Shown: positions 3,542 to 64,000 of the stretch, in pieces
How positions within the stretch are numbered: position 1 is the first letter of the stretch
Layout: every line of letters starts with the position of its first letter
Origin: Mobula hypostoma
Taxonomy: Eukaryota
DNA: 64,000 nucleotides
Assembly (NCBI RefSeq): GCF_963921235.1
Contig: NC_086108.1
Location: forward strand, 65,474,001 to 65,538,000
Direction: 5' to 3'
Translations under genes and position numbers: made by a program
Notes under the pieces: generated by a model
What the model was told of the DNA's origin: nothing
The model's database searches: none
What the model saw: only the letters and a program-made list of their open reading frames with translations

Positions 3542-5378
3542 ATAAGACCATAAGATATAGGAGCAGAAGTAGGCCATTCAGCCCATCGAGTCTGCCCCGC
3601 CATTCAATCATGGGTTGATCCAATTCATCCAGTCATCCCCGCTCCCCTGCCTTCACCCCATACCCTTTGATGCCCTGACTAGTCAAGAACCTATCTATCT
3701 CTGCCTTAAATACGCCCAATGACTTGGCCTCCACAGCCGTTCATGGCAACAAATTCCACAGATTTATCACCCTTTGACTAAAACAATTTCTTCATATCTT
3801 TGTTCTAAATTTATGTCCTTCAATCCTAAAGTTGTGCCCTCTTGTCCTAGACTCCCTTACCATGGGAGATATTTTGCCATATCTAATCTGTTCAGGCCTT
3901 TTAACATTCTGAATGTTTCAATGAGATCCCCCCTCATTCTTTTGAACTCCAGGGAATACAGCCCAAGAGCTGCCAGACATTCCTCATACGGTAACCCTTT
4001 CATTCCTGGGATTATTCTCGTGAATCTTCTCTCCAATGTCAGTATATCCTTCCTAAAATAAGGAGCCCAAAACTGCACACAATACTCCAAGTGTTACCTC
4101 ACGAGTGCCTTGTAGAGCTTCAACATCACATCCCTGCTCTTATATTCTATACCTCTAGAAATGAATGCCAACATTGCATTTGCCTTCTTCACCACCGACG
4201 CAACCTGGAGGTTAACCTTTAGGGTATTCTGCACAAGGCCTAAGTCCCAAGTCCCTTTGCATCTCTGCATTTTGAATTCTCTCCCCATCTAAGTAACAGT
4301 CTGCCCGTTTATTTCTTCCACCAAAGTGCATGACCATATACTTTCCAATGTTGTATTTCATTTGCCACTTCTTTGCCCATTCCCCTAGATTATCTATGTC
4401 TCTCTGCAGGCTGTCTGTTTTCCTCAACACTACCTGCTCCTCCACCTATCTTTGTATCATCGGCAAATTTAGCCACAAAACCATTAATCCCATAGACCAA
4501 ATCATTGACATATATCATAAAAAGCTCCGGTCCCAGCACTGACCCCTATAGAACTTCACTGGTAATCGGCAGCCAGCCAGACTAAGATCCCTTTATTCCC
4601 ACTCTGTTTTCTGCCGATCAGCCAATGCTCCACCCTTTCTAGTAACTTCCCTGTAATTCCATGGGCTCTTATTTTGCTAAGCAGCTTCATGTGTGGCACC
4701 TTGTCAAAGGCCTTCTGAAAATCCAAGTACACCACATCTACTGCATCTCCTTTGTCTACCCTGTTTGCAATTTCCTCAAAAAATTGCAATAGGTTAGTCA
4801 GGCAGGATTTTCCTTTCAGGAAACCATGCTGACTTTGGCCTATCTTGTCATGTGCCTCCAGGTACACCGTAATCTCATCCCTAACAATCAATTTCAACAA
4901 TTTCCCAACCACTGATATCAGACTAACAGGTCTATAGTTTCCTTTCTGCTGCCTCCCACCCTTCTTAAATAGCAGAGTAACATATGCAATTTTCCAGTCA
5001 TCTGGGTACAATGCCAGGATCTATCGATTCCTGAAAGATAATTGTTAATGCCTCCACGATCTCTCCAGCTACTTCCTTCAGAACCCGAGGGTGCATTCTG
5101 TTAGGTCCAGGAGATTTATCCACCCTTAGACCATTAAAGCTCCCTGAGCACCTTCTCAATCATAATTTTCACTGCACATACTTCAGTTCCCTGACACGCT
5201 TGAATGTCCGGTATACTGCAGATGTCTTCCACTGTGAAGACTGATGCAAAATACGCATTCAGTTCCTCTGCTATCTCTGTGTCTCTCATTACAATATCTC
5301 CAGCGTCATTTTCTATTGGTCCTATGCCTACCCTTGACTCTCTTTTACCCCTTATTATTTAAAAAAAGCTATTAATAT
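3542..5378 (-). mobile_element. 5'-truncated CR1 LINE (degenerate ORF2/RT)
   Basis: Minus-strand ORF pieces: DWKIA.VT.LFKKG..NYRPVSL, YLDFQKAFDKVPH, EYCVQFWAPY. The 3' tail repeat ATAAGACCATAAGA is at 3542. Confidence 0.92.
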
Positions 5379-29597: not shown

Positions 29598-31980
29598 ATC
29601 AATATTTCATTTGCTGCCTTGATTACTTGTTGCTTACGGCAACATTCTGCAGTTTCTTTCCTTTTAAACAAAGTCTGCTTTCCTCCTCTTCCTACTAAAT
29701 AGATAGTCTCATACCTTCCATTTGTTGTTTTTCACCCATCGCCTAACCTATCTGTATCCCCTTGCAGACTCTTTCCTTCTTTTTAAGAGTTTTGCTATCC
29801 CACATATGTTTGCATCAGCAGAAAATCTGGATATGAACTTCTTTCATCAAAATCATTAGGGTTGTAAACGTATAGGTCCCAATAGTACCTTACTAGTTTT
29901 AGATTACCAACCTGAAAATGACTCATTTATCCAGATTTTTGTTCCAATCACAGATTTAAATTGAGTCTGTATTTTAAAAAAAAATTTCAATATGTTTTCT
30001 GAAAATTTGAACTCTTTTTCTGTGCTGATTTTTAAGAAGTTGAAAAACTGCAAGACATTCTTTGAAAATGTCAACACATTTGTTTCAATATAATTAGATT
30101 TTATTACAATTCTAAAAAAAGCTGATTTTATATTATTTTGCATATATATCTGCTCTGAGTGATGAACTATCAATCACCTTGGCTCGAGCTAAAGACTGAA
30201 TCCTTGTGAAAGTTGAGAACAGTATGACCTACAAGTTCATAAATTGCATTGCATTTTAATATATACTCTGGCAGCAACTTAAGATTGTGTAGCAAGAAGA
30301 AAATGTCTACTTGATTCTACTTGAACAATGAAATAAGTAATTATTCTGTATTATATGTATAAAGTTCACCATCCCTCCCTGATTCATCACTTCTTTAAAT
30401 TCTGATCAGTTTAAAGCAGTCACTTTTAAAAATGGTCAAAAACTAATTTGACTTAGTCTAGGGAGTTAATGTGCTCATTTGGTCATTAATTATAGTGTAT
30501 TTCTGGAGATAATTATATTCTGATCCATGATCCATAAAGTGTCAGTAATGCAGCACGCTTCTGTGTGTAATATGAATAATTAAGTTTAGTTACTGCCTGT
30601 CATTTAGGTATGTGCATAAAATAATAACTTGGCTTTTAATATGCAATGGAAGTTGCAGTGATGCGGACCATATTCACAAGTGTTTCCCTAACTTAAAATT
30701 GAATATCTTGTAGAACAAAATCTAAGCTGATACTGTGAAAACAAAACTTCTGTATTTCATGATTACCCAGTAACAAGCTGGCAAGTAGAGGAAAGCAGTA
30801 TCTGGGAGGTTTAATGAGGAAAGTAAAGGAGGAGAAGGAAGGCAGAGAAGCAAGGGACATAAGGAATTAATCATCTCTCTTGGAAAACAGAAGTCATATC
30901 AATTGGAACCAGAGGAGTGAAAACAAAGAAATGGAATTTTCAAGATGAAGAAAGGGGTGAGGCTGATCTTTCAGTAGGGCCTCAACTGGACGTTAAGCTC
31001 TTTATTTTCACTCTGCTTCATCCATGTGAAAAACAGTCTTCTAATAATAATATGATGTCTTAATATGAGCACAGGCCATAATGGAGGCTTGTGGCATCTT
31101 GACAACTCTTAAAGGATGTCAAGATGTTCTTCTATTTTGCTTTCTGTATCCTGTACTTGTTTAAGATTCTTACCTCTTTTATGAGGAATATGCAAACTAA
31201 GCAATGCAAATGAAAGTTTAAAAAATTAGTTTCCATTATCTTCTTATCTGAACAAAACCCTCCAGTTAAAGCCAAATTTCATTAATTATAGTCATGGAGT
31301 TTCATTATCACCGTTGGGTACTCAGGTACATTCAAGCATAACAGAAAAAGGCTCAGTTGCAGGGCACAAATGCAAATTTCAGTTGTACCACAGACTCAGG
31401 AGATGCACTAAAATTAAATGCTATTCGGGATTAGGCACTGTGATAAGATTTGCTGGTATCACAGGCTTTTTTTTTTGCTTTCACCCCTCTCCAACTCTAC
31501 AATTCAGAACACACTTCCTTTCTTTCTATTCCACTTCGGAGAGAGTCATTAACCTAAAACATTAAATCCATTTTTCTCTCCAGAAATTTGAATTTTTATT
31601 TCAACATGCCTTTACTGTTTTGCCACATTCCCTTGCAGATGCTTATGGCTGATATTTGTAAAATAATTGGTTATATAGGTATATTTGTCAGTGCGGGCTC
31701 ATTGGGTTTGTATTCCTAAATAAATTTAAAACAAGCTTTTTTGTACCCTTGCTTAGAAACCCCCTGTACTTGTAATAGACTATATTTAATATTCTGTGTG
31801 TTTTTTCATTGAATCTTTTCTAATCTTTGACACATCATTAGAAGAGGATGATTGGAAAGAAACAAAACACGCTATCTCTGTTGTAAATTGCTACAGTTTT
31901 GCAGTAGGAAGTATTTTTCATGTGGTAAAATGCTAGCTGCCATTATAAAAATGAACTTGTATCATAATTCTGTTCAACAG

Positions 31981-32037
31981 CCATATTCTGTATATCAAAG
32001 CAAAACTGAGCAAAAACAAGAAAAAGAAATAAAAACA
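31981..32037 (+). CDS. PATJ: PATJ small exon PYSVYQSKTEQKQEKEIKT, phase 0-0
   Basis: Acceptor tctgttcaacAG|CCA and donor ACA|GTAAGT; 57 nt, frame-preserving. It sits where the Q/E/K-rich linker exon is expected before PPPMxLPPPY. Confidence 0.75.
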
Positions 32038-32161: not shown

Positions 32162-32312
32162 GCTTTGGCCCCAAATAGAGCTGGTCCACCACCACCCATG
32201 CGATTGCCTCCACCTTACAGAGAACCTGCAAGTGTGAAATTATCAGAATTGGAGAAGTCAGTGGAATTTCCAGATAATGGCAAGATTCCAAAGAAAGAAA
32301 ATGAGAGTGACC
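32162..32312 (+). CDS. PATJ: PATJ exon ALAPNRAGPPPPMRLPPPYREPASVKLSELEKSVEFPDNGKIPKKENESD(C..), phase 0-1; contains a PPPY (PY) motif
   Basis: Acceptor tcccctttcAG|GCT and donor GACC|GTAAGT; 151 nt. Matches recalled human APPPMKLPPPY. The phase-1 end fits the expected next exon (Q)KIRQRY, which is not in this window. Confidence 0.93.
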
Positions 32313-33341: not shown

Positions 33342-35737
33342 TGCAGTGTATTAGATAACCATAGCACACTGATTAGATAACAAAACACTAAAAGAATCTT
33401 ATTGTTCAACCTCAGTTGTTCAGTTAAGATCTACAGTGAAAAAAATTGAAGTCATAGAGGAAAAGGGTGTCAAAATCCTAAATGCTATTTCAGTCAATGC
33501 ATAACACAAACAGAAAAAGATGAGGAAATATTGGACTTTCTAAAAGAATATGTTCAGTTGCCAGAGTTATTCCTCTAACTGACCCCAGTGCAGAATTTCC
33601 TAAGTCCCTCATTGTAGAGTAAAATATTGGTTCTGCCGTGCAAGATCTCTAGCCCTTGCTACCGTACGCTCAAAGGGCAAGTGGTGACCAAAATGTTTCC
33701 TACCATGTAGCTACTTTAGCCAGTGTTTACACTCAGAAAGTTGGAAAAGACACCACTCAAGTTTACATAGGTGAGTTGAAAACCTTAGCAAAGTGGGAAA
33801 GCTTATGATGAAATACTGAGGGAGGTATTAACCCAGATCAGAGATATCGAGAGTAGGGAAACAGTCACTGTTGAAACTTCTGAAGATGTGCGTAACAAGA
33901 TCACGACTCTTCAATTCAGAGCAGACATTTCTGGTACCATACTAACAGATTTGTAGAGGATGTTCAGACTACTCCTCAATATTAGAGCTGCAACTGGAAC
34001 AGAAAAAACAAAACCTGCCATCATTTACTGAATTATTGACACTTTCTACACTCCGAGGAAGACAAGCATGCTTCCAGAGCTGCATGCATGAAGCAGCATT
34101 TAGGGACAGTCAAACAACGTGCCGTTATACAGTCTCAGACCACAGGTACCTGTAAAGAAAATGATTTAGCACAGCTAATTCCAGTTACTTCTCAGCTGAC
34201 TAAATGGATCGCTGAACTTCAAAGACAACTAGCTACTCTACAAACTACAAAACAGCAGAAGGTAAAAGCGAGCTCTAAGACAGCAGGTGATACACCACCA
34301 AAAGGAAAGACTGACGTAAAAGATAAACTAGAGTCCACAACCACTAACAAACAGCCAAGTGTAAAACCAAAACCTTGGTACTGTTTTAAAGGTGGCGAAG
34401 ATGGGCACGTAGCCAGCTGTTGCTCTTATGAACCAAATCTGGTATTAGTAGCAGAAAAGTGAAGACAGCTTGAGAAGAGACAGAGTGAGTGGGAGTCATG
34501 TCAGGATACTCTTAAGCCTCATTTTAAACTAGAAGCAGTTCGTGTTGCGGGACAAACAGGGATTGATGTTGGCAAAGCGTATCCCAAAAGTTTCAAGATG
34601 TTGCTTGGTGAAACAAAGTCCCAGGAAGTGTGGGAATGCATCTTGAAGTTTACTGAAAGTCGTCTGGTGAACTCAGGTGATGCAGGTGACATTAGTGCTG
34701 CTGGTGTTGTGCAAGCTGTCTGTGAGAGTTTTCTTGTCCAGCAAACAGAACCTGCCGCAGATGTCGCCATTGCATATGTTCGATCCTTAATGATGCACTC
34801 AAGTGCTATACCTGACAGTTACACACAAGAAGATGAGTGTGGGGGATTACCAGTTATTTCTCATCTCTGATGCTAAGATTACAGACTCCCAGTTAACTGA
34901 TCCATGCATAAGGGAAGTCATCAAGCAGATGGAAACTGGAAAAAACCCATCCCCTTCGGTGCGGAACGCAATCCCCAGACTACCCTACCCTCTCAGAGAA
35001 TGGGATCCTCTAGAACTAAAAGATGGAATTCCCTACTACAGGAAGAGATTAACAGGAGATAAAACAACATGCCAGGAAAGTTGTTTTACCTGAAAAGTTT
35101 CAATCTGAGGTACTTAAGAGTCTTCACAATGACTTTGGTCACATGCTTATTGATCGTACCCTGGATTTAGTCAGAAGCCGATTCGGTTGGCCCATGATGG
35201 CTGCTGATGTGGAACACAAGATTAAAACATGCAGTCGATGTGTAAGAAGAAAGACCTTGCCTGAGAAAGCTGCTCTGTTAGTGAATATTGTGAATACTCA
35301 ACCCCTGCAACTGGTCTGTATGGACCTTCTTACATTAGAACCCGATTAAAGTAACACAAGAGATGTGTTAGTAATATCTTATCATTTCACTAAATATGCT
35401 TTGGCTATTCCTACACCTAACCAAAAAGCCAAGACGGTTGCGAAGTGCCTACTGGAGCGTTTCATCTTGGATTATGGTTATCCTGAGTGCCTACACAGCA
35501 AGAAAAAGCCTGACTTCGAATCCCACTTGATTATAGAATTGTGTGAATTTAAAATGTCAAGAAGTGAGAACTGGAATTCATTAAGTCAGAAATACACCAT
35601 ATCATTCCAGAGGAAGCCCTGTCAAGAGGTTTAACAGGACCCTCTTAAGTTTGTTGGGAACCCTGGAGATGAAATATAAAACTCGCTGGCGAGAATCTGT
35701 GAAACCCCTGGTCCATGCTTATAATTGTACTAGGAAC

Positions 35738-36572
35738 ATTCCCTAATTCAATTTAAAGTGGTTCATAGAGCACATATGTCCAAAGATAAGTTAGCGCGTT
35801 TTTACTCGCATATTAATCCTTTTTGTGATAGATGTTCGGGGCAGATAGCCTCTTTAACTCATATGTTTTGGTCTTGTCCTACTTTGGAAACTTTTTGGAG
35901 AGATATTTTTAATATTATTTCTAAGGTATTAAATATAGATATCTCTCCTCACCCTATTACTGCTATCTTTGGACTTCCTAAAATTTCTAGTAATCTTTCC
36001 CCTTCAGCCTGTAGAATGATCGCATTTCTTACTTTAATGGCGAAAAGGTGTATTTTACAACATTGGAAAGAGCTTAATGCTCCAAATACCTTTTTTTGGT
36101 TCTCTCAGACGATTTTATGTTTGAATCTGGAGAAAATTAGAAGCAACCTTTATGATTCTTCATTTAAATTTGAACAGATTTGGGGACCTTTTATTCGATA
36201 CTTTCATTTAATGTAATACATACCCTTCTTGTTTTTTTTCACTGTTTTTAAAGGAGGTCGGGATTGAGGACGTGATTTTAAGTTTAACTCTGTTTGGTTT
36301 TAAGTTAGCCCATTGCTTTGCTTTGCTTTTAGTTAGTTGCACGGTGGGTTTTTTTTTGGGGTTTTTTTTTTTTCTTTTTTTTCCATTGATATATATATAA
36401 AATTTAGTATACTATTATGTTATCTTGGTTTTTTATGTTTAAATTACATTGTTTGTAGTATTTTTTTTGGTATTGATACCTTCTGGAATTCTATTATATT
36501 TTAACATTGTATTAATGTTTATATGGTTTACCTTTTTGTATACTTATTCAATAAAAAGATTTAAAAAGAAAG
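35738..36572 (+). mobile_element. Young 5'-truncated L1-clade LINE nested in the Gypsy integrase, 15-bp TSD
   Basis: AATTGTACTAGGAAC is duplicated at 35723-35737 and 36573-36587. ORF 35758..36216 has CDRC...HMFWSC; AATAAA plus AAAGAAAG tail. Confidence 0.93.
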
Positions 36573-41474: not shown

Positions 41475-42414
41475 ATGTCTCCTGCGACGGTGATGTGCCT
41501 CTCATGTGAGATGTGGCAGTCTTGGGGGAACGCCCCTCTCCTACAGAGTCATATCTGCCAGAAGTGCATACGGCTGGGCGATCTGGAAGACCATGTAAGG
41601 AATCTGGAGCAGCAGCTGGATGACCTTCGACTCATAAGGGAGAATGAGGCAGTCATAGATGAGAGCTACAGGGAGGTAGTCACACCTAGGCTGTCGGAAG
41701 CAGGTCGTTGGGTGACAGTCAGAGGGAGGAAAGCAAAGGTGAGTAGACAGGTAATGCAGAGCACCCCTGTAGCCATTCCCCTGAATAATAAGTTATCATC
41801 CTGGATACTGTTGGTGGGGACGACCGACCAGGTGTGAGCCACGGTGGCAGGGCCTCTGGCACTGAGTCTGACCCTGTGGTGCAGAAGGGTGGGACGGAGA
41901 AGAGGAGAGCTGTCGTCATTGGAGACTCTATAGTCAGGGGAGCAGACAGGAGATTTTGTGGACGTGAGAAGGACACCCGCATGGTTTGTTGCCTCCTGGG
42001 TGCCAGGGTCCGGGATGTCTCTGACCGGGTGCATGACATCCTGGTACGAGAGGGAAAGCAACCAGAAGTCATGATACATGTTGGGACCAACGACATAGGC
42101 AGGAAGAGGGATGAGGTCCTGAAGTGTGAGTTTCGGGAATTAGGCAGAAGGCGAAGAACAGGACCTCAAGGGTGACGTTCTCAGGATTGCTGCCAGTGCT
42201 ACGTGACAGAGATGGTAAGAATTGGAGGAGATGGCAGTTGAATGCGTGGCTGAGGAGTTGGTGCAGGGAGCAGGGTTTTAGATTTTTAGATCATTGGGAT
42301 CTCTTCTGGGGAAGGTGGGACCTCTACAGATTGGATGGGTTGCACCTGAACTCGAGGGGGAGCAATATCCTTGCAGGTAGGTTTGCTAGCATGGTTCGGG
42401 AGGGTTTAAACTAA
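41475..42414 (+). pseudogene. CR1 ORF1 (esterase-type), two frameshifts near 41810-41835 and 42150-42175
   Basis: Split across ORFs 41292..41837, 41834..42175 and 42172..42414; all SGNH blocks are present. Confidence 0.85.
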
Positions 42415-42449
42415 TTTGCGAGGGGGATGGGACCCAGAGCGATAGAACA

Positions 42450-45331
42450 GTGAAAGAAGTGCATGGAGTAAAGCCAGATCTAACATACAGAGAGACTTTG
42501 AGGAAAGAGAAGCAGAATAAATGGAGTAAAGACAGTAAGGTAGAAGGGCTGAAATGTGTGTACCTCAATGCAAGAAGCATCAGGAACAAAGGTGATGAAC
42601 TGAGAGCTTGGATACATACATGGAATTATGATGCAGTGGCCATTACAGAGACTTGGCTGGCACCAGGGCAGGAATGGATTCTCAATATTCCTGGATTTCA
42701 GTGCTTTAAAAGGGATAGAGAGGGCGGAAAAAGGGGAGGAGGGGTGGCATTACTGGTCAGGGATACTATTACAGCTACAGAAAGGGTGGGTAATGTAGCA
42801 GGATCCTCTTTTGAGTCAATATGGGTGGAAGTCAGGAACAGGAAGGGAGCAGTTACTCTACTGGGGGTATTCTATAGGCCCCCTGGTAGCAGCAGAGATA
42901 CAGAGGAGCAGATTGGGAGGCAGATTTTGGAAAGGTGCAAAAATAACAGGGTTGTTATCATGGGTGACTTTAACTTCCCTAATATTGATTGGCACCTGAT
43001 TAGTTCCAAGGGTTTAGATGAGGCAGAATTTGTTAAGTGTGTCCAGGATGGATTCCTGTCACAGTATGTGGACAGGCCGACCAGGGGGAATGCCATACTA
43101 GATCTAGTACTAGGTAATGAACCGGGTCAGGTCACAGATCTCTCAGTGGGTGAGCATCTGGGGGACAGTGACCACTGCTCCCTGGCTTTTATAATTATCA
43201 TGGAAAAGGATAGAATCAAAGAGGACAGGAAAATTTTTAATTGGGGAAAGGCAAATTATGAGGCTATAAGGCTAGAACTTGCGGGTGTGAATTGGGATGA
43301 TGTTTTTGCAGGGAAATGTACTGTGGGCATATGGTCGATGTTTAGAGATCTCTTGCGGGATGTAAGGGATAAATTTGTCCTGGTGAGGAAGATAAATAAT
43401 GGTAAGGTGAAGGAACCATGGAGGTGGAAAATCTGGTCAGGTGGAAGAAGGCAGCATACATGAGGTTTAGGAAGCAAGGATCAGATGGGTCTATTGAGGA
43501 ATATAGGGAAGCAAGAAAGGAGCTTAAGAAGGGGCTGAGAAGAGCAAGAAGGGGGCAGGAGAAGGCCTTGGCGAGTAGGGTAAAGGAAAACCCCGAGGCA
43601 TTCTTTAATTATGTGAAGAAAAAAAGGATGACAGGAGTGAAGGTAGGACCAATTAGAGATAAAGGTGGGAAGATGTGCCTGGAGGCTGTGGAAGTGAGCG
43701 AGATCCTCAATGAATACTTCTGTTCGGTATTCACCAATGAGAGGGAACTTGATGATGGTGAGGACAATATGAGTGAGGTTGATGTTCTGGAGCATGTTGA
43801 TATTAAGGGAGAGGAGGTGTTGGAGTTGTTAAAATACATTAGGACGGATAAGTCCCCGGGTCCTGACGGACTATTCCCCAGGCTGCTCCACGAGGCGAGA
43901 GAAGAGATTGCTGAGCCTCTGGCTAGGATCTTTATGTCCTCATTGTCCACGGGAATGGTACCGGAGGACTGGAGGGAGGCGAATGTTGTTCCCTTGTTCA
44001 AAAAAGGTAGTAGGGATAGTCCGGGTAATTATAGACCAGTGAGCCTTACGTCTGTGGTGGGAAAGCTGTTGGAAAAGATTCTTAGAGATAGGATCTGTAG
44101 GCATTTAGAGAATCATGGTCTGATCAGGGACAGTAAGCATGGCTTTGTGAAGGGCAGATTATGTCTAACAAGCCTGATAGAGTTCTTTGAGGAGGTGACC
44201 AGGCATATAGATGAGGGTAGTGCAGTGGATGTGATCTATATGGATCTTAGTAAGGCATTTGACAAGGTTCCACACAGTAGGCTTATTCAGAAAGTTAGAA
44301 GGCATGGGATCCAGGGAAGTTTGGCCAGGTGGATTCAGAATTGGCTTGCCTGCAGAAGGCAGAGGGTGATGGTGGAGGGAGTACATTCAGATTGGAGGAT
44401 TGTGACTAGTGGTGTCCCACAAGGATCAGTTCTGGGACTTCTACTTTTCGTGATTTTTATTAACGACCTGGATGTGGGGGTAGAAGGGTGGATTGGCAAA
44501 TTTTCAGACGACACAAAGGTTGGTGGTGTTGTAGATAGTGTAGCGGATTGTCAAAGATTGCAGAGAGACATTGATAGGATGCAGAAGTGGGCTGAGAAGT
44601 GGCAGATGGAGTTTAACCCGGAGAAGTGTGAGGTGGTACACTTTGGAAGGACAAACTCCAAGGCAGAGTACAAAGTAAATGGCAGGATACTTGGTAGTGT
44701 CGAGGAGCAGAGGGATCTCGGGGTACATGTCCACAGATCCCTGAAAGTTGCCTCACAAGTGGATAGGGTAGTTAAGAAAGCTTATGGGGTGTTAGCTTTC
44801 ATAAGTCGAGGGATAGAGTTTAAGAGTCGCGATGTAATGATGTAGCTCTATAAAACTTTGGTTAGGCCACACTTGGAGTACTGTGTCCAGTTCTGGTCAC
44901 CTCACTATCGGAAGGATGTGGAAGCATTGGAAAGGGTACAGAGGAGATTTACTAGGTTGCTGCCTGGTTTAGAAAGTATGCATTATGATCAGAGATTAAG
45001 GGAGCTAGGGCTTTACTCTTTGGAGAGAAGGAGGATGAGAGGAGACATGATAGAGGTGTACAAGATAATAAAAGGAATAGATAGAGTGGATAGCGAACAC
45101 CTCTTCCCCAGGGCACCACTGCTCAATACAAGAGGACATGGCTTCAAGGTAAGGGGTGGGAAGTTCAAGGGAGATATTAGAGGAAGGTTTTTTACTCAGA
45201 GAGTGGTTGGTGCGTGGAATGCACTGCCTGAGTCAGTGGTGGAGGCAGATACACTAGTGGAATTTAAGAGACTACTAGACAGGTATATGGAGGAATTTAA
45301 GGTGGGGGCTTATATGGGAGGCAGGGTTTGA
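42450..45331 (+). pseudogene. CR1 ORF2 (APE + RT), one frameshift near 43420 and one in-frame TAG at 44843-44845
   Basis: ORFs 42450..43463, 43418..44845 and 44858..45331 are collinear. Confidence 0.92.
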
Positions 45332-48600: not shown

Positions 48601-48634
48601 ACGTCTCTCTCCCTCACAGTCTCTTTTTAAAAAT

Positions 48635-49470
48635 GAATGCCATCCAGGCATGGATAGAAGATTGGCTGGCAAACAAAACTGAGTCAGCATTAATTACTCT
48701 TTTTCTGGTTGATGAGTGTAACAAGTGTTAAGCCACAGAGACTGATGCCTGGGCTGCAATTTTTTACAATTTATAAAAATGTCTCAGTTGCTAAATTTGT
48801 TAATGACACAAAGATAAAAAGGAAAGTAAGTTTTGAAGAGGATTAAGGAGGATACAAAGGCACGTAAATAGGTTTAGTGATCGGGCGTATATTTGGAAAA
48901 AGATGTTTAAAATATGAAATCATTCATATTGGCTGGGAAAAGCTGGGATATTATTAGGAGGATTGAATTCAAAAGTGGTGAGATTATATTTCAGGAATAT
49001 AGGGCATTGTTGAGATCACATCTTGAGTACTTTATTGGTCTTATTACTTAAGGAACAATGTGAATGTAGTAGAAATAATTAAGAGCAAGTGTACCTGGAA
49101 TGGGTGTGTTGGCACATGCATAAAGTTTTGACAAACTAAGCTTGTGTCCACTGCAGTTTAGAAGAGTTCGAGGAAACTTGATGGAAATATTCATACTCTG
49201 GGCACTTGACAAGGTGGATGTGGAGATGATGTTCCTTTTATGGCAGAAAATAGAACTAGGGTTCATCGTTTAAAATAAAGAGGTTGCAATTTAAAATCAA
49301 GTTCAGGAAAGTTGTTTTTCTCTCTGTCAAAGGGCTATAAGTCTTTGGAACCTCCTTAAAGAGGGGTGGGAGTTGGGTTTGTCAAGATTTTTAAACAGAG
49401 GTAGCTAGATTTGTGCAATTACATGTGCAAGAAATTGGGAATGCAGAGCTGAGGCTACATCCTGTTGAAT
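48635..49470 (+). mobile_element. Old, highly degenerate CR1 fragment
   Basis: Remnants gcatggatagaagattggctgg, gctaaatttgttaatgacacaaagata and cttgacaaggtggatgtggagatgatgttcc. Confidence 0.6.
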
Positions 49471-50249
49471 AATCGAGGAGATGGCCTCTTTAAGGCTGGC
49501 AACAGCTAGGACACTAGCTTAAGCAGTGAAAAGAATTTGCTCTGCTTACAGTCTGTATAGCTCCATTTATGCAGGGTAACCAAAGTTAAAATCTGTGCCT
49601 GTATATGTCAACTGTTTAGTTTCATTCTTCCCTTGAGTGAACATGTCTTCTGTTATGCTATGTTTTATGCTGCAATAAAGATTTGCTGCAGTGCCAATAT
49701 TTATTTATTTATTTTCATTCAAAATTACTGCAGTGGTTTTCAAAGATTTGCTATTTGTATATAAATTCTTATCCAATAGCTGATCATTCATAGACTCTGT
49801 AAAAATTGATTATGGAGGACAATTATTTAAAGCCCCATGATTCTGTGATGGTAAAATGTTCAAGATAATATAATGAGTTAATATATTTTTTTTAAAACAT
49901 ACTTTATTAAAATGCATATTTTGTTTGATATCATGATAGTATGCTTAAGATTGCCGCTCGCTAACCTTGTTTGGGCACTAGACATTAAATTCTCTAATCT
50001 TGTTCAGATTGCATCAACATTTAAAGAAATATTAGATTTTCCTAAATTAACATGTCAGAATTATCTGACCCAAGTTTTATATATAATTTTTTATCAAAAA
50101 TAACTGCTATTTTGATGCACAGTCAGATGAAAAAATATAATAGATGCAAATTACAGGTACTTACAAAGCAAGAGTACTGGCCACGAGCACCATATAAAAT
50201 ACAGCATAATATGACATCATTGTTTGTTTGCGAACACGAATCAATCTAG

Positions 50250-50624
50250 AGATCTGAAAAGAGCTGTTAGTGTAACGTTGTTAGAACAGACTAGGCTGGC
50301 AGGCCTTAGAAACACTCCTTGACTGGATAAGTGCTGGCGATCATTGCAGTGCTTTGATGCTGTTCTCTCCTACTGTCTTCTGCTTGTTTCATTAACTTGG
50401 TACACAATTAAATGTGCTGGCATGCCATGTCACTTGGTATTAAATTAGGATAATTGATTGTTGGTGATAAGCGAAGAAGACATGACGGCTTGCCCTTAAG
50501 GAGAACATTCTCACGAGATTTCTCATGAGTGATTGGAAAGCAGAGGGACAGACTTTCAGACCTCAGTAGCAACTGCACATTTTATGTCAGGGATGCAATT
50601 GTCTGACAATTAACTGGAGCAGGC
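50250..50624 (+). promoter_or_regulatory. Putative internal promoter / 5' UTR of the CIPP-like isoform
   Basis: Unique, repeat-free and less AT-rich than its flanks, directly upstream of the MVQGGFP exon. Contains TCTCACGAGA (50509-50518) and TCTCATGAGT (50521-50530). Boundaries are approximate. Confidence 0.5.
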
Positions 50625-50646
50625 ATGGTGCAAGGTGGGTTTCCAG
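50625..50646 (+). CDS. PATJ: Coding part of an alternative first exon of the short PATJ isoform (CIPP-like): M-V-Q-G-G-F-P + G, phase 1
   Basis: gcaggcATGG is a strong Kozak context. ATG GTG CAA GGT GGG TTT CCA G|GTAAGA ends in a strong donor of the same phase as the 32312 donor. It resembles the recalled rodent CIPP N-terminus MVHGGFPEKIRQRY. Confidence 0.8.
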
Positions 50647-51814
50647 GTAAGAGAATTGTGCATGTCGTGCTGGAAAGATGATTGTTTAGATTGGGGGGTG
50701 GGGGAAGACTCTCTTATAAAATATATAATTTTAACCTGAGGAAATCAACATCTGTTATGCAAGCGAGGAGTAATTTTGAAGCAAATTTGACCATTAAGAT
50801 TGCAAAGCATGTTCAATATTACATCATTGCTATATTAACAAGTAATAAAAATGTCATTAAGAAATTAATGATTTTGTAGACAGGAAAGGTGTAATAACTT
50901 GAAATTAATCACTCATACATGTAATATAATTTTATCAGGATACCAGTTACACCACCAGAATCAGTCCATCTTTTTTTTTCTAAAAGAAAGACAGGCACTA
51001 TTATTTTAAAGTTTTTATTTTTATACCGGAATCCCACTCAATGCAGATGTACTTACATAATCTCATTGACATTCTTTCTTGTGATTCCAGGCTGTTATAT
51101 AGATGGAATTAATTAGCTTAATTTTCTGCTAGAACAAGTAACAATGCATTAATAGCATTAATGAGCAGATGCTTTGAAGATAAATTTGAGTAGTGTTTTC
51201 TAGTAAAGCAACAACGTTCTATTATCAGTTTATGTGAAAACCCATATTTGGCTTCAACAGTATGAACCCTTTAGTGTGGAAATACAGTCAGAAACAAATT
51301 GAACTCTTTAACACGAATTCAGTGTTCAGATTATTATTGTGCAAATGTTACTCTGTTTTTACTGTTCTTGTATTTTAAGCTACCAAATGTATGAGATGTA
51401 TTAAATTTGAAACTTTAATTGTTAAATCATGTCTTTAATAGCCTCATATTCATACAGCAGGGTGTTAGTAGTCTGTAGATGTTATTGTTGTGTTATGAAT
51501 AGTTAAATACTAAGTAGACTTTATAGAAAATATAACATTCACCTTTCACCCTTTGCTATTTGTCAACTCGTGTTTGGGTCTGCTAGAAATGTGTTTATGT
51601 CTTACATGCAATGTATAAACTGTAGATTTCATACTCAGAAATGCTTTGTGTGTATTCAGGTTCTCAGTCATTAGCATTTGCATCATGTATATTTACAATA
51701 CGTTGGAGAAAATATTAATTAGCATGATTAATTTACCATGATATTATCACATCCTTTTGCCACGTGTGTTCCCACATTCCTGGGAAAAGGCCTGCATTTG
51801 AAATTTATCCTCAC

Positions 51815-53598
51815 TCCAATTCCATCAGAAGTGGAGAGAGTAGGCAGCTTCAAGTTCCTGGGTGTCTTTCTTTCTTTTTAAATCTTTTTATTAAATAAGT
51901 ATACAAAAAGGTAAGCCATATAGACACTAATACATTGTTAGAATATAATAAAATTACAGAAGATATTAATACAAAAAAAATACTATGAACAATGTAATTT
52001 AAACATAACATACCAAGGTAACATAATAGTATACTAATTTTATATATATATATATATATCAATAGAGAAAAAGAAAAAAACCCCCCCAAAAAAAACCCAC
52101 CGTGCAACTAACTAAAAGCAAAGCAAAGCAATGGGCTAACTTGAAACCAAACAGAGTTAAACTTAAAATCACGTCCTCAATCCCGACCTCCATTAAAAAC
52201 AGTAAAAAAAACCAAGAAGGGTATATATTACATTAAATGAAAATATTGAATAAAAGATCTCCAAGTCTGTTCAAATTTAAATGAGGAGTCATAAAGATTG
52301 CTTCTAATTTTCTCCAGATTCAAGCATAATATCGTCTGAGAAAACCAAAAAAAGGTAGTTGGAGCATTAAGCTCTTTCCAATGTTGTAAGATACATCTTT
52401 TCGCCATTAAAATAAGAAATGCAATCATTCTATGGGCTGAAGTGGAGAGATTACTGGAAATTTTAGGTAGTCCAAATATAGCAGTAATAGGGTGAGGAGA
52501 GATATCTATATTCAATACCTTGATAATATTAAAAATGTCTCTCCAAAAAGTTTCCAAAGTAGGGCAAGACCAAAACATATGAGTTAAAGAGGCTATCTGC
52601 CCCGGACATCTATCACAAAAAGGATTAATATGAGAATAAAAGCGCGCTAACTTATCTTTGGACATATGTGCTCTATGAACAACTTTAAATTGAATTAGGG
52701 AATGTTTAGCACAGATAGAGGAAGTATTGACTAATTGTAAAATCTGCCCCCAGTCATCCACGGAAATGGTAAACCCCAATTCCTGTTCCCAATCTACCCT
52801 AATCTTATCAAATGGAGCTTTCCTAAGTTTCATAATAATATTATAAATCATAGCCGATGCACCTTTCTGACATGGATTAAGGTTGATTATAGTATCTAAA
52901 ATGTATGTAGGAGGAAGCATAAGTTCCTGGGTGTCAAGATCTCTGAGAACCGAACCTGGTCCCAACATATCGATATAGTTATAAAGAAGACAAGACAGTG
53001 ACTATGCTGCATTAGGAGTTTGAAGAGATTTGGTATGTCAACAAATACACTCAAAAACTTCTATAGGTGTATCATGGAGAGCATTCTGACAGGCTGCATC
53101 ACTGTCTGGTATTGGGTGGGGACTACTGCACAGGACCAGAAGAAGCTGCAGAGGATTGTAAACCTAGTCAGCTCCATCTTGTGTACTAGCCTACAAAGTA
53201 CCCAGAACATCTTCAAGGAGTGGTGTCTCAGGAAGGCAGCGTCCATTATTAAGGACATCCAGCACCCAGGATTTGCCTTTTTCTCATTGTTACCATCGGG
53301 TAGGAGGTACAGATGCCCGAAGGCAGACACTCAGCGATTCAGGAACTGCTTCTTCCCCTCTGTCATCCAATTCCTAAATCGACATTGAACCATTGAACAC
53401 TACCTCACTTCTTAATATATATTATTTCTGTTTTTTTGCACGATTTTTAATCTATTCAATAAATGTATACTGTAATTGACTGATTTATATATTTTCTTTC
53501 TTCTATATTATGTTTTGCATTGAACTGCTGCTACTAAGTTAACAAGTTTCATGACACATGCCGGTGATAATAAACCTGATTCTGATTCTTATTCTGAC
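51815..53598 (+). mobile_element. Rex1/Babar-type LINE 3' part, interrupted by an L1
   Basis: ORF 53020..53388 reads NFYRCIMESILTGCITVWY...SGRRYR (DUF1891-like); tail AATAAACCTGATTCTGATTCT. Confidence 0.85.
51867..52920 (-). mobile_element. Young 5'-truncated L1-clade LINE, 15-bp TSD
   Basis: AAGTTCCTGGGTGTC is duplicated at 51852-51866 and 52921-52935. ORF 52228..52968 is nearly identical to the 35758 copy. Confidence 0.93.
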
Positions 53599-58933: not shown

Positions 58934-59209
58934 TGTGGCGTGTGGCCAAGTGGTTAGGGCGTTGGACTAGCAATCTGAAGGTCATGGGTTCAAGCTTCGG
59001 CCGGGGCAGCGTGTATGTCCTTGAGCAAGGCACACAATGCTCCAGTCTACCCAGCTGAGAATGGGTACCGGCAAAAATGCTAGGGGTTAACCTCATGATA
59101 CACTGGCATCCTATCTGGGGTGGGGAGGGGGGTTGTCTTGTACTCTCAGTTCCTTCACGCCACGGAAGTGTCGGCCTGATGGGCCACAAAGGGTCGTGAC
59201 AGACTTTAA
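58934..59209 (+). mobile_element. tRNA-derived CORE-type SINE with 15-bp TSD
   Basis: A box TGGCCAAGTGG, B box GGTTCAAGC, core-like TGTCCTTGAGCAAGGCAC. TCTTAACTTGGTAAG is duplicated at 58919-58933 and 59210-59224. Confidence 0.85.
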
Positions 59210-60527
59210 TCTTAACTTGGTAAGCAAGCTTATGTGTGGCACCTTGTTAAAGACCTTCTGAAAGTCCAAATATACAACATCTACTGTATCCCCTTTATCT
59301 ATCCTACTTGTAATCTCCTCAAAGAATTCCAACAGGTTTGTCAGACAAGATTTTCCCTTAAGAATGCCATGCTGACTTTGTCCTATCTTGTCCTGTGTCA
59401 CCAAGTACTCCATAACCTCATCCTTAACAATTGACTCCAACATCTTCTCAACCACCGAAGTCAGGCTAAATGGTCTATAATTTGCTTTCTGCTGCCTCTC
59501 TCCGTTCCTAATGGGTGGAGTAACATTTGCAATTTTCCAGTCCTCCGGAACCATACTAGAGTCCAATGATTTTTTGAAAGATCATGACTAATGCCTCCAC
59601 AGTCTTTAATTCTACCTCTTTTAGAACCCTAGGTTGCAGTTTATCTGGTCGGGGTGACTTATGTACCTTCAGGTCCTTCAGCTTTTTGAGCACCTTCTCC
59701 CTTGTAATATAACTGCACTCACTTCTCTTTCCTCTCACACTTCAACACCTGGCACACTGCTAGTGTGTCTTCCACAGTGAAGACTGATGCAAAATACTCA
59801 TTTAGTTCATCTGCTATCTCCTTGTCCCTGTTGTTATTTCTCCAGCCTCATTTTCTAGCAGTTCCATATCCACTCTCATCTCACAGTTACTTTTTATATA
59901 CTGAAAAAGCTTTTTCTATCCACATCGATATTGTTTACTTGCTTGCTTTCATATTTCATCTTTTCCCTCTTAATGATTCTTTCAGTTGCTTTCTGTAGGT
60001 TTTTAAACGCTTCCCAATCTTTTATCTTCGCACTAATTTTTGCTTTGTTGTATGCCTTTTCTTTTACTTTTACATTAGCTGTACTTTTGTACTATTGCCA
60101 TGGTTGTCAGCCACAGATGTACTATTTTGCCATTGTTTCCTTGTTTGTTCACCTTCCTTGTTTTCCCAGAACTGCAAGCCATTGCTGCCTTGTGCCTTCC
60201 CTGTCAGCATCTCCTTCCAATTTTCTGGCAAACTTCTCTCTCGTACTGCTTTAATTTCTTTTACTCCACTGAAATACTGCTACGTCAGACTTTGCTTTCT
60301 CCCTATCAAATTTCAAGTTGAACTCAATCATATTGAGATCACTGGTTCCTAAGGGTTCTTTTACCTTAATCTTCCTAATTGCCTGCAGTTTATTACATAA
60401 CAGCCAATCCAGTATAGCTGATCCCCTGGATGGCTCAACAACAACCTGCTCTAAAAAGCCATCTCATAGGCATTCAACAAACTCACTCTCTTGAGATCCA
60501 TTACCAACCCTATTTTCCCAATCTACC

Positions 60528-61005: not shown

Positions 61006-64000
61006 TGTTTATTCCCCTTCATAGATGCTGCCTGATTTGCTGAGTTTCATATGTGTAGCTGAGTAACTTAAGCCTTTCATTCTTTCCTTTCAACTCACTC
61101 TCTATATTTTTCTTCTATCATCTAAATGTTTTTATTATTACTATGTGACATGCATTTAAAAAGATGCCAGCTTGACGTTTATGTAGATATTAAATGTTCC
61201 CTGTGGGGGAAATCACAACTGAAACCAAGGCTATCCCTGCCAATGTATATCTCCATTTTCCAGTGGTGATAATGAGTTGATTAGGAGCATAGAACCCTCT
61301 CTGTATTTTCCTTTGTTTGCCCAGGAACCATAAAGCCTACTTCGAAGTCTGAGATTAGTTGACTCTTCATTGACTGGCAAACATGGGTAAACATATACAT
61401 GCCTTAGAGTGCTTGGAAATGTATTTTACATCTTATATATTCATAAGAAGAATAAATTATAATATAAATCAAAATAATGATGACTTATTTGTAATTTCAT
61501 TCTTATTAGATTTTACAAAATAATTTCAACACCTAGAAACAGTAAACACTACTAATGATCAAATATTTAAAAGTCCATAAGGGGATAAATTGTACATGAC
61601 CAATTAGGTAAAGACTTTTATTGCCAGCCTGAGTCAGAATGCGTAAACCTGTTACCCTTCGACTGTATGTAAGGCATTCATTGATGATAGAACATTTCCA
61701 ATATGAACATATATTTTAGGAGAAATTATTCAGTCAAAGAAATTTATAGTAATAATTTATGAGAGGTGAAAAAGAATGAAAAGTCCTCAATGGAGGAATG
61801 AAGCTTATGCTAGGTTGCCCAACCTGAAGATACCGTACTCAACCTGAAGGTACGAAACAGTGTATGTCAGATTTTGGTTAGGTCGGCTACAAATAGTTGA
61901 GTTAGGTCATATTGAACTGGCCATCTCCTTAAAAATAAATTCACCTAGCATTAATATGTTATTTAAAAACTGGGTACCTGATCAGAAACTAAACAACCAT
62001 TTGTGGAAGGGTTTGATTGGGTTAGATATCTGGGCTAAATTTAGATTTTGACTACTCATGGCCAGATTAAGATCAGGTTTTATTTTTTTTTTGCCTAGCA
62101 CATATAGTTTCTTCCATATGAATTTTAAAAAAAAAATCCTAAATGATATATTCCTGGAAGACTTATTCTTATTCTGTGTGGTTATCCTGTTTAACTACCT
62201 GCATTTTATATCATAAACTGAGAGCGAGCTACTGTAATTCTAGCAAAACTGCATTGCTTTGTATTATGTCCCTGTAACTTTAAGTCCTTTTTTATATTTT
62301 TGGACATTGATACATTTGCAAGAACACAGGCAATGTGTGCAAAGTAATCTGGGAATTCCATGCAAGACTGCATTTGTGAAATAGAAATGAAAACTGTGGG
62401 CTTAAGAGAATGTGGCTATTTTGCAATGTCAGTCATTGTATTCTGCCGCTGACAGCAGTTGAAAGTAGATGTAGGAAAAACACCGCTTGCTGCAGCACAG
62501 TCTCTTGGGTAGGAGCATTCCATGAAAGGCATGCCTTGCTTCAGCACCACAGAAATGACTTGTTACCTCAGTAAGCAATACTCAGCAGCTGGGCTTTAAG
62601 CTTGGAATCTTCCAGTACAAAGGTTTGAGGCTAACGAACATGGAAAATGTTGCCAGGTTAGTGTGTTTTAAGACATGATGCAGAAACTACATTTGTACTT
62701 TAATATGCATTGTTCATCATGAGGTAGAAAAAAAGACAATTGCTCTGTAGAATTCTCTGTTAACATTTATTTTACATCTGCTCTTCACAAGATTAGCATA
62801 ATGGTATTTTAAGTTTATCTGAAGTTCTGGTATTAGTATTGTTTAAAGTTTAATTTTTTTATCAATATATTTGGCCATGGCATTTAAATTTTGTCATACT
62901 TGTATGTTTTAGTGAACCTGTTTTTATTCTACATCGAGTCCCATTAAACAGTACAAATGCTATTATAAATTATTTAAATATCAAGATATTTTCTTATTTA
63001 AATTCTAAGCTCACAAAATTTAATATAGCATACCATCTGTCAGTGAGTGTGTGAGTGTGTAAAATAAGCAAGAAAAATACAAAGGTAATGAAATTGTTAC
63101 TTGCAGAATATCATAATCACTGTCCTATCTGAAGGATTTCTGAAATTAACATTTCAGTGATTTATTTGGCTTTTAATTAAAGTTGCTTTGAAGCATTGAA
63201 TCTGAACATTTGAATATATAAACAAATGTCTAATTCCTAGTTCTCACTGCCTATGTGTACTATTTCATGTATGATGCTTTTATCGATGTAAAGTGTTCTG
63301 GTGAATGTTCATGGTGATAAAGTATTGAATGGATTACTGAAGGGTTTCAGATTGTTTCAATTTCCATTCTTCACTTCAGCAACATCTAAATTCTTGTTGA
63401 AGCATGACACTATTCTTTTTTTGTAACAATTCAGTCAATAATCTTGCGTGTTTGTTGAAACTCAACAATATTCTTCCATATTGCTTAATACTTATATGTT
63501 TGAAATAACTTGGTAAATCTGAATTAAAATATAAAAGCAAAAAAAACAATATTGCCTTTCAAACAACATGCTGCATAGTGACTGAGCTGATGATGATCAT
63601 GAGCATTCCTGTTCGACTCCCCATCAATTGTATAAATATTAGTCTTACTTTCCTGTCAAATATATTTGCTTGGGGTAATAATCTGTGAGACACATAATTT
63701 TTAAATTGGTCACACATGGTTTAAATAGGTTTCTATTCAGATTAGTTTTGCTTTGATTCTGAACCTGATCAATTTACTTTAAAATCTAACCAGGCACGCT
63801 TATGAAAATTTCTTTAAGCTACTTTAGAACCTTAATATCAGTTTGACTTATTGTGATAAAGTGCTTATGTTAATTTTAAACATGAGCGTTAAATCTCTCT
63901 GTGGCTTTGCATTATGTGTCACCTTACAGTTAGTAATACTGTGGATGGCCATCTTGAAAGGAAGTTAATTATTCTTCGAGTGTTTTTAAAGAGGAAGTAA

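Follow-up and report, generated by a model that had tools for sequence, protein, structure and literature searches.

The window, i.e., the whole 64-kb stretch of Mobula hypostoma DNA that was analysed, lies in the PATJ (inaD-like/INADL) gene of this Mobula ray. With the exon at 32162-32312 as query, three of 23 candidate proteins were retrieved, all of them ray inaD-like (PATJ) proteins, and M. hypostoma P0001 showed 100% identity across the exon. Residues 819-1266 of P0001 were matched by nine exons between positions 2002 and 32312, which were closer to P0001 than to M. birostris P0009 (10 residue differences between the two proteins in this range). P0001 carries an L27_2 domain and 13 PDZ domains; the exon matches, these domains and a quick tree (see below) all identify the gene as PATJ rather than MPDZ. 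The exon at 32162-32312 ends one base into a codon, giving a phase 1 donor at 32312. No exon for P0001 residues 1267 onward was found within the 64-kb window, so the intron after 32312 is longer than 31.6 kb. A small exon of 20 codons lies at 31978-32037 (+), 124 nt upstream of the 32162 exon, and the ray isoforms P0008 and P0010 are 9-19 residues shorter before the junction; small exons near 31978-32037 may be alternatively spliced. The window also contains a LINE-type element at 42390-44845 (+), whose two overlapping frames encode endonuclease and reverse transcriptase domains, other reverse transcriptase pieces at 4559-5020 (−) and 59114-59581 (−), and zf-RVT pieces at 52231-53001 (−) and 35734-36213 (+).

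Table 1. Features in and around the large PATJ intron of M. hypostoma (positions in the window).
Feature	Position	Strand	Details
Final internal exon of long PATJ, upstream of the large intron	32162..32312	+	Encodes P0001 1217-1266, phase-1 donor
Block without self-repeats, holding the exon and the presumed promoter	48602..51864		Self-BLAST
Candidate promoter motifs TATAAAA (50193) and TGACATCA (50212), unproven	50193..50219	+	X3 contig starts inside TATAAAA
Alternative first exon, longest extent seen, true start unfixed	50197..50646	+	X3 contig
5' leader, up to 428 nt	50197..50624	+	9 upstream ATGs, stops in all three frames
Leader stretch identical in two other organisms, 118 nt	50379..50496	+	Contig comparison
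Coding part, MVQGGFP plus one base forming a Glu codon across the junction	50625..50646	+	Same seven residues in human P0030 and budgerigar P0017
Splice donor GTAAGA, phase 1	50647..50652	+	Loose ends at 50646 in X3 and X4; 8/9 consensus

Within this intron, the first-pass annotation had placed an alternative first exon of a short, CIPP-like PATJ isoform, in which an ATG in strong context opens MVQGGFP plus one nucleotide before a donor G|GTAAGA. All of these elements are present at 50625-50652. The ATG at 50625-50627 has a G at both −3 and +4, codons 50625-50645 encode MVQGGFP, and the G at 50646 is followed by GTAAGA from 50647. An in-frame stop lies upstream of the ATG, at 50604. The sequence used for scoring donors was the consensus CAG|GTAAGT. 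The donor at 50646/50647 agrees with it at 8/9 places and is one of five such sites among the 1820 GT sites in 32313-64000, where no GT site scores 9/9. Frames leading from an ATG to a phase 1 GTRAG within 21 codons or fewer were found 20 times in the same part of the intron, so the pattern of ATG plus donor is not rare by itself and proves little. It is the peptide, not this pattern, that exceeds chance: an order-2 Markov model predicts 1.4 × 10−7 exact matches to MVQGGFP followed by G|GT in 31,688 nt, and 2.9 × 10−6 when position 3 is left free.

The exon was also said to lie in a repeat-free block of a repeat-rich intron, and this agrees with the self-BLAST, in which 48602-51864 has no self-repeat cover compared with 34% for 32313-64000, the masking being blind to elements that are single-copy in the window, e.g., the LINE at 42390-44845. 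LINE-type remains flank the block on both sides. Another self-repeat-free block, 61011-64000, contains one of the 20 ATG-to-phase-1-donor frames, at 62522-62577 (+) with 16 codons, which resembles no fetched protein.

Contigs of 4 of the 16 listed sequencing runs, none of them catalogued as RNA and all guessed to be so, were compared with positions 49700-51800; they give no transcription start, strand or level. In run X3 (organism A), one contig equals 50197-50646 with 0 differences and then continues with 30 letters unlike the window. In run X4 (organism B, another study), a contig covers 50305-50646 with 11 differences and one gap in approximately 341 letters, and then continues with 26 loose letters. 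Read by eye, both loose ends supply the rest of a Glu codon begun by the G at 50646, followed by codons for P0001 residues 1268-1276, and the same letters joined to the C at 32312 give Gln, which is P0001 residue 1267. As the loose letters fit both the G at 50646 and the C at 32312, both donors use one acceptor, and the exons ending at these positions are alternative partners of it. The equal phase and common next exon proposed for the two donors were thus confirmed by frame and loose ends.

The donor at 50646/50647 is used in transcripts, as in a CIPP-type first exon, the joined form being present in 2/4 runs from two species and two studies; only the first downstream exon is visible in loose ends of 30 and 26 letters. 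In run X1, one contig (50382-50646) ends exactly at 50646 and a second one (50622-50933) is unspliced across the donor. Run X7 (organism D) covers 50298-50540, short of the donor. No contig of X3, X4 or X7 covers the intron, and spliced RNA is expected to yield just such contigs, which depart from the genome at a GT donor and continue into the next exon. The exon is shown to be transcribed and to be joined in frame to the PATJ exon that follows. The expected conservation of the block was likewise observed, as the exon block is present in contigs of two other organisms and is conserved at approximately 96%.

The first-pass start of the exon at 50250 has to be moved, since the X3 contig extends the exon to at least 50197. 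The contigs of three organisms begin at 50197, 50298 and 50305, and no 5' loose end or upstream exon was seen in the contigs of the 4 runs. The stops in all three leader frames exclude a coding cassette exon, and the question is then whether the long transcript could occasionally include the exon as an internal, non-productive cassette, its stops leading to decay and MVQGGFP staying untranslated in rays. The stops together with the nine upstream ATGs would suit such a cassette, as would an acceptor-like pyrimidine run ending near 50007 (by eye), and the contigs do not fix the 5' end of the exon. However, no contig enters the exon from elsewhere, the contigs of three organisms all stop at their own positions within 50197-50305, and 7/7 residues are kept relative to human in the right frame, which would be needless for a decay exon. 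We therefore regard the non-productive cassette as very improbable and favour an internal promoter in the large PATJ intron, which would start the transcript at or upstream of approximately 50200-50300. Acceptor-like and donor-like sites were also noted by eye around 150 nt just 5' of the exon (50008-50157, +), a segment with no contig cover in the 4 runs.

Among the candidate promoter motifs, the TATA-like one contains the beginning of the X3 contig at 50197, so some transcripts start upstream of the start expected from that box. This weakens the TATA box at 50193 as the only start signal. The frames of the nine upstream ATGs in the leader all close before 50625, and nine is close to the 8.5 expected from base composition. 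Upstream ATGs were lost in 1/8 cases covered by X4 and in 0/6 covered by X7, which is the level of the divergence (approximately 3-4%); selection on them is thus unsupported. Being no fewer than by chance, they could limit translation of the short form. The in-frame stop at 50604-50606 is altered in organism B (place 50605) and so is not conserved. The invariant 118-nt stretch of the leader gave p = 0.002 when compared with 12 variant sites placed at random, the stretch having been chosen after seeing the data. A structured RNA in the leader was rejected, with z-scores of −0.28 for 50379-50496 and +0.50 for 50197-50624, and the Rfam search yielded one sub-threshold match, outside the exon. Leader-based translational control is possible.

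The search for short homologues gave 1805 proteins, the best 120 of which were classified, and 263 proteins were fetched in all (P0016-P0278), many rows being isoforms or breeds of one species. Among the best 120 of 1805, 31 start with MVQGGFP plus Glu (human, other placentals, Tasmanian devil and two birds). Position 3 is His in two rodent rows and position 4 is Ala in one row; 13 teleost rows begin with a shorter MLPE/MVPE-type sequence, and 73 start otherwise. The corresponding numbers for the 263 fetched proteins are 62 MVQGGFPE, 8 rodent MVHGGFPE, 3 with Ala-4, 32 teleost-type and 158 other. Short PATJ proteins therefore do begin with the expected MVxGGFPE, with the rodent proteins P0183 and P0193 taken as stand-ins for mouse CIPP. 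The tetrapod-type rows show single changes only (H3 in 8 rows, A4 in 3, R4 in 1). Scored as other were also database starts that look like forced homology fits (e.g., P0018, P0019, P0110, P0113) or resemble translated intron ends (such as P0204-P0216), and many of the short rows are probably homology-built models. Nevertheless, homology projection cannot explain all rows, because proteins from assembled contigs that cross the junction carry the start (Logan P0186; P0157, with A at position 4), as do RefSeq isoforms. In 0/278 proteins was MVQGGFP preceded by long-form sequence; the sole internal case, P0166, has an unrelated extension.

The ray exon thus has the CIPP-type N-terminus, MV(Q/H)GGFP, spliced to the exon that precedes the first PDZ kept in the short form. 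The human proteins KAI4080929.1 (666 aa) and BAG57001.1/B4DE90 (452 aa), other mammals and birds have the identical seven residues and the junction Glu. Based on these comparisons, the ray exon is very probably the orthologue of the exon that starts CIPP-type short PATJ in mammals and birds. One could suppose that it arose independently of the mammalian exon by chance or convergence, given the 20 similar patterns in the intron and a likeness to bony vertebrates at the level of the peptide, not of a DNA alignment. The minute number of exact matches expected, the same junction in the same phase and the observed splicing leave this a negligible chance. What selection acts on is a different matter. 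It may keep nucleotides, namely the start context, exonic splice signals and the donor, with the seven residues being a neutral start for the first PDZ. Start context and donor leave a coding part of just 22 nt between them, teleosts seem to manage with a shorter start (13/120, best 120 of 1805), and residues 1-4 are disordered (pLDDT <50) in the structure model of the bat short form P0253, which is uninformative at a mean pLDDT of 59.8. On the other hand, the identity of ray and human at all seven positions and the single changes elsewhere fit constraint on the protein, and we give selection on nucleotides alone somewhat less than an even chance. Such selection would bear on what the peptide does and leave the exon as it is.

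No ray protein starting with the exon was found among the 15 in three fully read clusters, and no chondrichthyan short form with this start was among the matches listed in two short-protein searches (best 120 of 1805; best 120 of 139). The only named chondrichthyan rows in the chondrichthyan-directed search (best 120 of 139) were five Mustelus MPDZ-like proteins. The exon is apparently unannotated in rays; a short form may hide in another cluster with a long representative. The prediction that gene predictors miss the exon thus holds for the rays examined (0/15); it fails for mammals and birds, in which annotation of the exon is widespread.

In the quick tree of 35 hand-picked rows, the four MPDZ rows were separated from every PATJ row as a clade with support 100, and all short forms grouped with PATJ. 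The Ala-4 protein was sister to amniotes, and the killifish short and long forms came out as one gene. None of the fetched MPDZ rows starts with MVQGGFP, and 25 rows with MPDZ-type residues before the junction carry an internal exon there. Because the fetched MPDZ rows are without this start, the comparison of jawed-vertebrate rows suggests that the exon originated after the PATJ/MPDZ duplication. Judging by parsimony over the ray, mammal and bird rows, the exon probably goes back to the common ancestor of jawed vertebrates. Cartilaginous and bony fishes split approximately 450 million years ago. The proposed jawed-vertebrate age of both N-terminus and promoter is in this way supported by the peptide and the intron position, from which the age of the internal promoter would follow.

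When the frame of the exon is joined to the rest of P0001, a protein of 727 amino acids is predicted, assuming that all later P0001 exons are used, and it is without L27 and PDZs 1 to 7. Downstream of the junction, a local PDZ profile recognised six domains in each of three rays (P0001, P0002, P0003) and two MPDZ proteins (P0054, P0063). It counted five in human P0030, budgerigar P0017, bichir and two teleosts, and four in rat P0183 and human P0138. The solved structure 2daz is a match for the first PDZ that is retained. In the alignment, the second domain (P0001 1412-1490) is intact in ray and MPDZ and has decayed to a linker in bony vertebrates. Rays have kept a PDZ lost by bony vertebrates, intact in the three scanned, and their short form is predicted to have six PDZs versus four or five. 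The ancestral layout was probably that of the six-PDZ ray form, the decay of one PDZ in bony vertebrates having come later. This domain is encoded downstream of the window, and bamboo shark P0016, a fragment model, seems to be without it. The long PATJ has 13 PDZs in ray, like MPDZ, versus 10-11 in the four bony-vertebrate PATJ proteins scanned.

We propose that the first exon consists of a long leader and seven codons and that, as the observed splicing indicates, 50646 is spliced to the acceptor that the long transcript reaches from 32312, the two donors being alternatives presumably set by promoter choice. The product would be the C-terminal part of P0001 with six PDZs. We assign a probability of about 90% to the explanation as a whole, i.e., an internal-promoter PATJ transcript whose exon is orthologous to the short-form exon of mammals and birds and of jawed-vertebrate age. 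The contact with the L27N domain of Pals1 is made by PATJ's own L27. A short form without L27 should therefore not join the Pals1 polarity complex and would stand outside the Pals1/Crumbs assembly. PATJ is described as the partner of the Pals1 L27N domain in a passage of PMC2173254, and CIPP as a PATJ product in one of PMC7335742. According to the passages of PMC8555555 on rodent CIPP, the protein has four PDZs and reaches high levels in kidney and brain. Kir4.1, GluN2C and ASIC3 are among its partners, and it increases the surface expression of Kir4.1 and the current of ASIC3; neurexins and neuroligins are also partners (same passages and a title cited there). CIPP is named only in a reference in PMC11014856, and a term search of the PATJ review PMC8405222 returned no passage on isoforms, splicing or CIPP. 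In the literature searched, outside of which most subscription papers lie, nothing was found on the promoter, origin or evolution of the short isoform.

Rodent CIPP was represented by Rattus rattus inaD-like X4 (P0183) and Arvicanthis X3 (P0193), of 619 aa with four PDZs. The ray form shares with them the junction, 6/7 residues, the absence of L27 and the restriction to C-terminal PDZs, and differs in having Q instead of H at position 3 and a predicted six PDZs instead of the four by which CIPP is described in PMC8555555. Retained in the ray are the second PDZ, reduced to a linker in bony vertebrates, and also the terminal PDZ. The annotated short PATJ proteins of mammals and birds have five (P0030, P0017), four (P0138) or three (P0247) PDZs. 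Teleost short PATJ proteins (MLPE, MVPE, MLPPE, MLLSE) have a short start at the same junction and fall into the PATJ clade of the tree; unlike the ray form, they start three to four residues shorter and have five PDZs, and their first exon is presumably homologous. The MPDZ/MUPP1 paralogue (P0054, P0063) has the same six C-terminal PDZs as the ray protein, but it has an internal exon before the junction, the MVQGGFP start being absent in the fetched rows. By analogy with the mammalian work, the ray short form would be a multivalent PDZ scaffold that binds the tails of channels and receptors, and we consider it rather likely that it shares the role of rodent CIPP.

The isoform itself is known, and what is new is the lineage, cartilaginous fish, and the age, not the kind of system. 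Splicing observed directly in rays, for which no record was found, makes the exon at least as old as the split of cartilaginous and bony fishes. Such an age speaks for CIPP as a second PATJ product under selection rather than a peculiarity of rodents. As a consequence, PATJ knockouts, knockdowns and human variant studies should state which of the two products is affected. A wider reading, in which PATJ has had two promoters since the origin of jawed vertebrates, giving an epithelial polarity scaffold and a channel scaffold without L27 that ancestrally had six PDZs, with a seven-residue tip, the same from rays to humans, that is functional in targeting, turnover or binding, and a conserved leader that controls translation, is as a package less likely than not; no discussion of it was found in the literature searched. 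In tarpon, shads, salmonids and icefish (P0074, P0111, P0165, P0258, P0268, P0270), the short form is the X1 or the only RefSeq product of the locus, which reflects either an annotation split at the large intron or a duplicate that kept only the short form.
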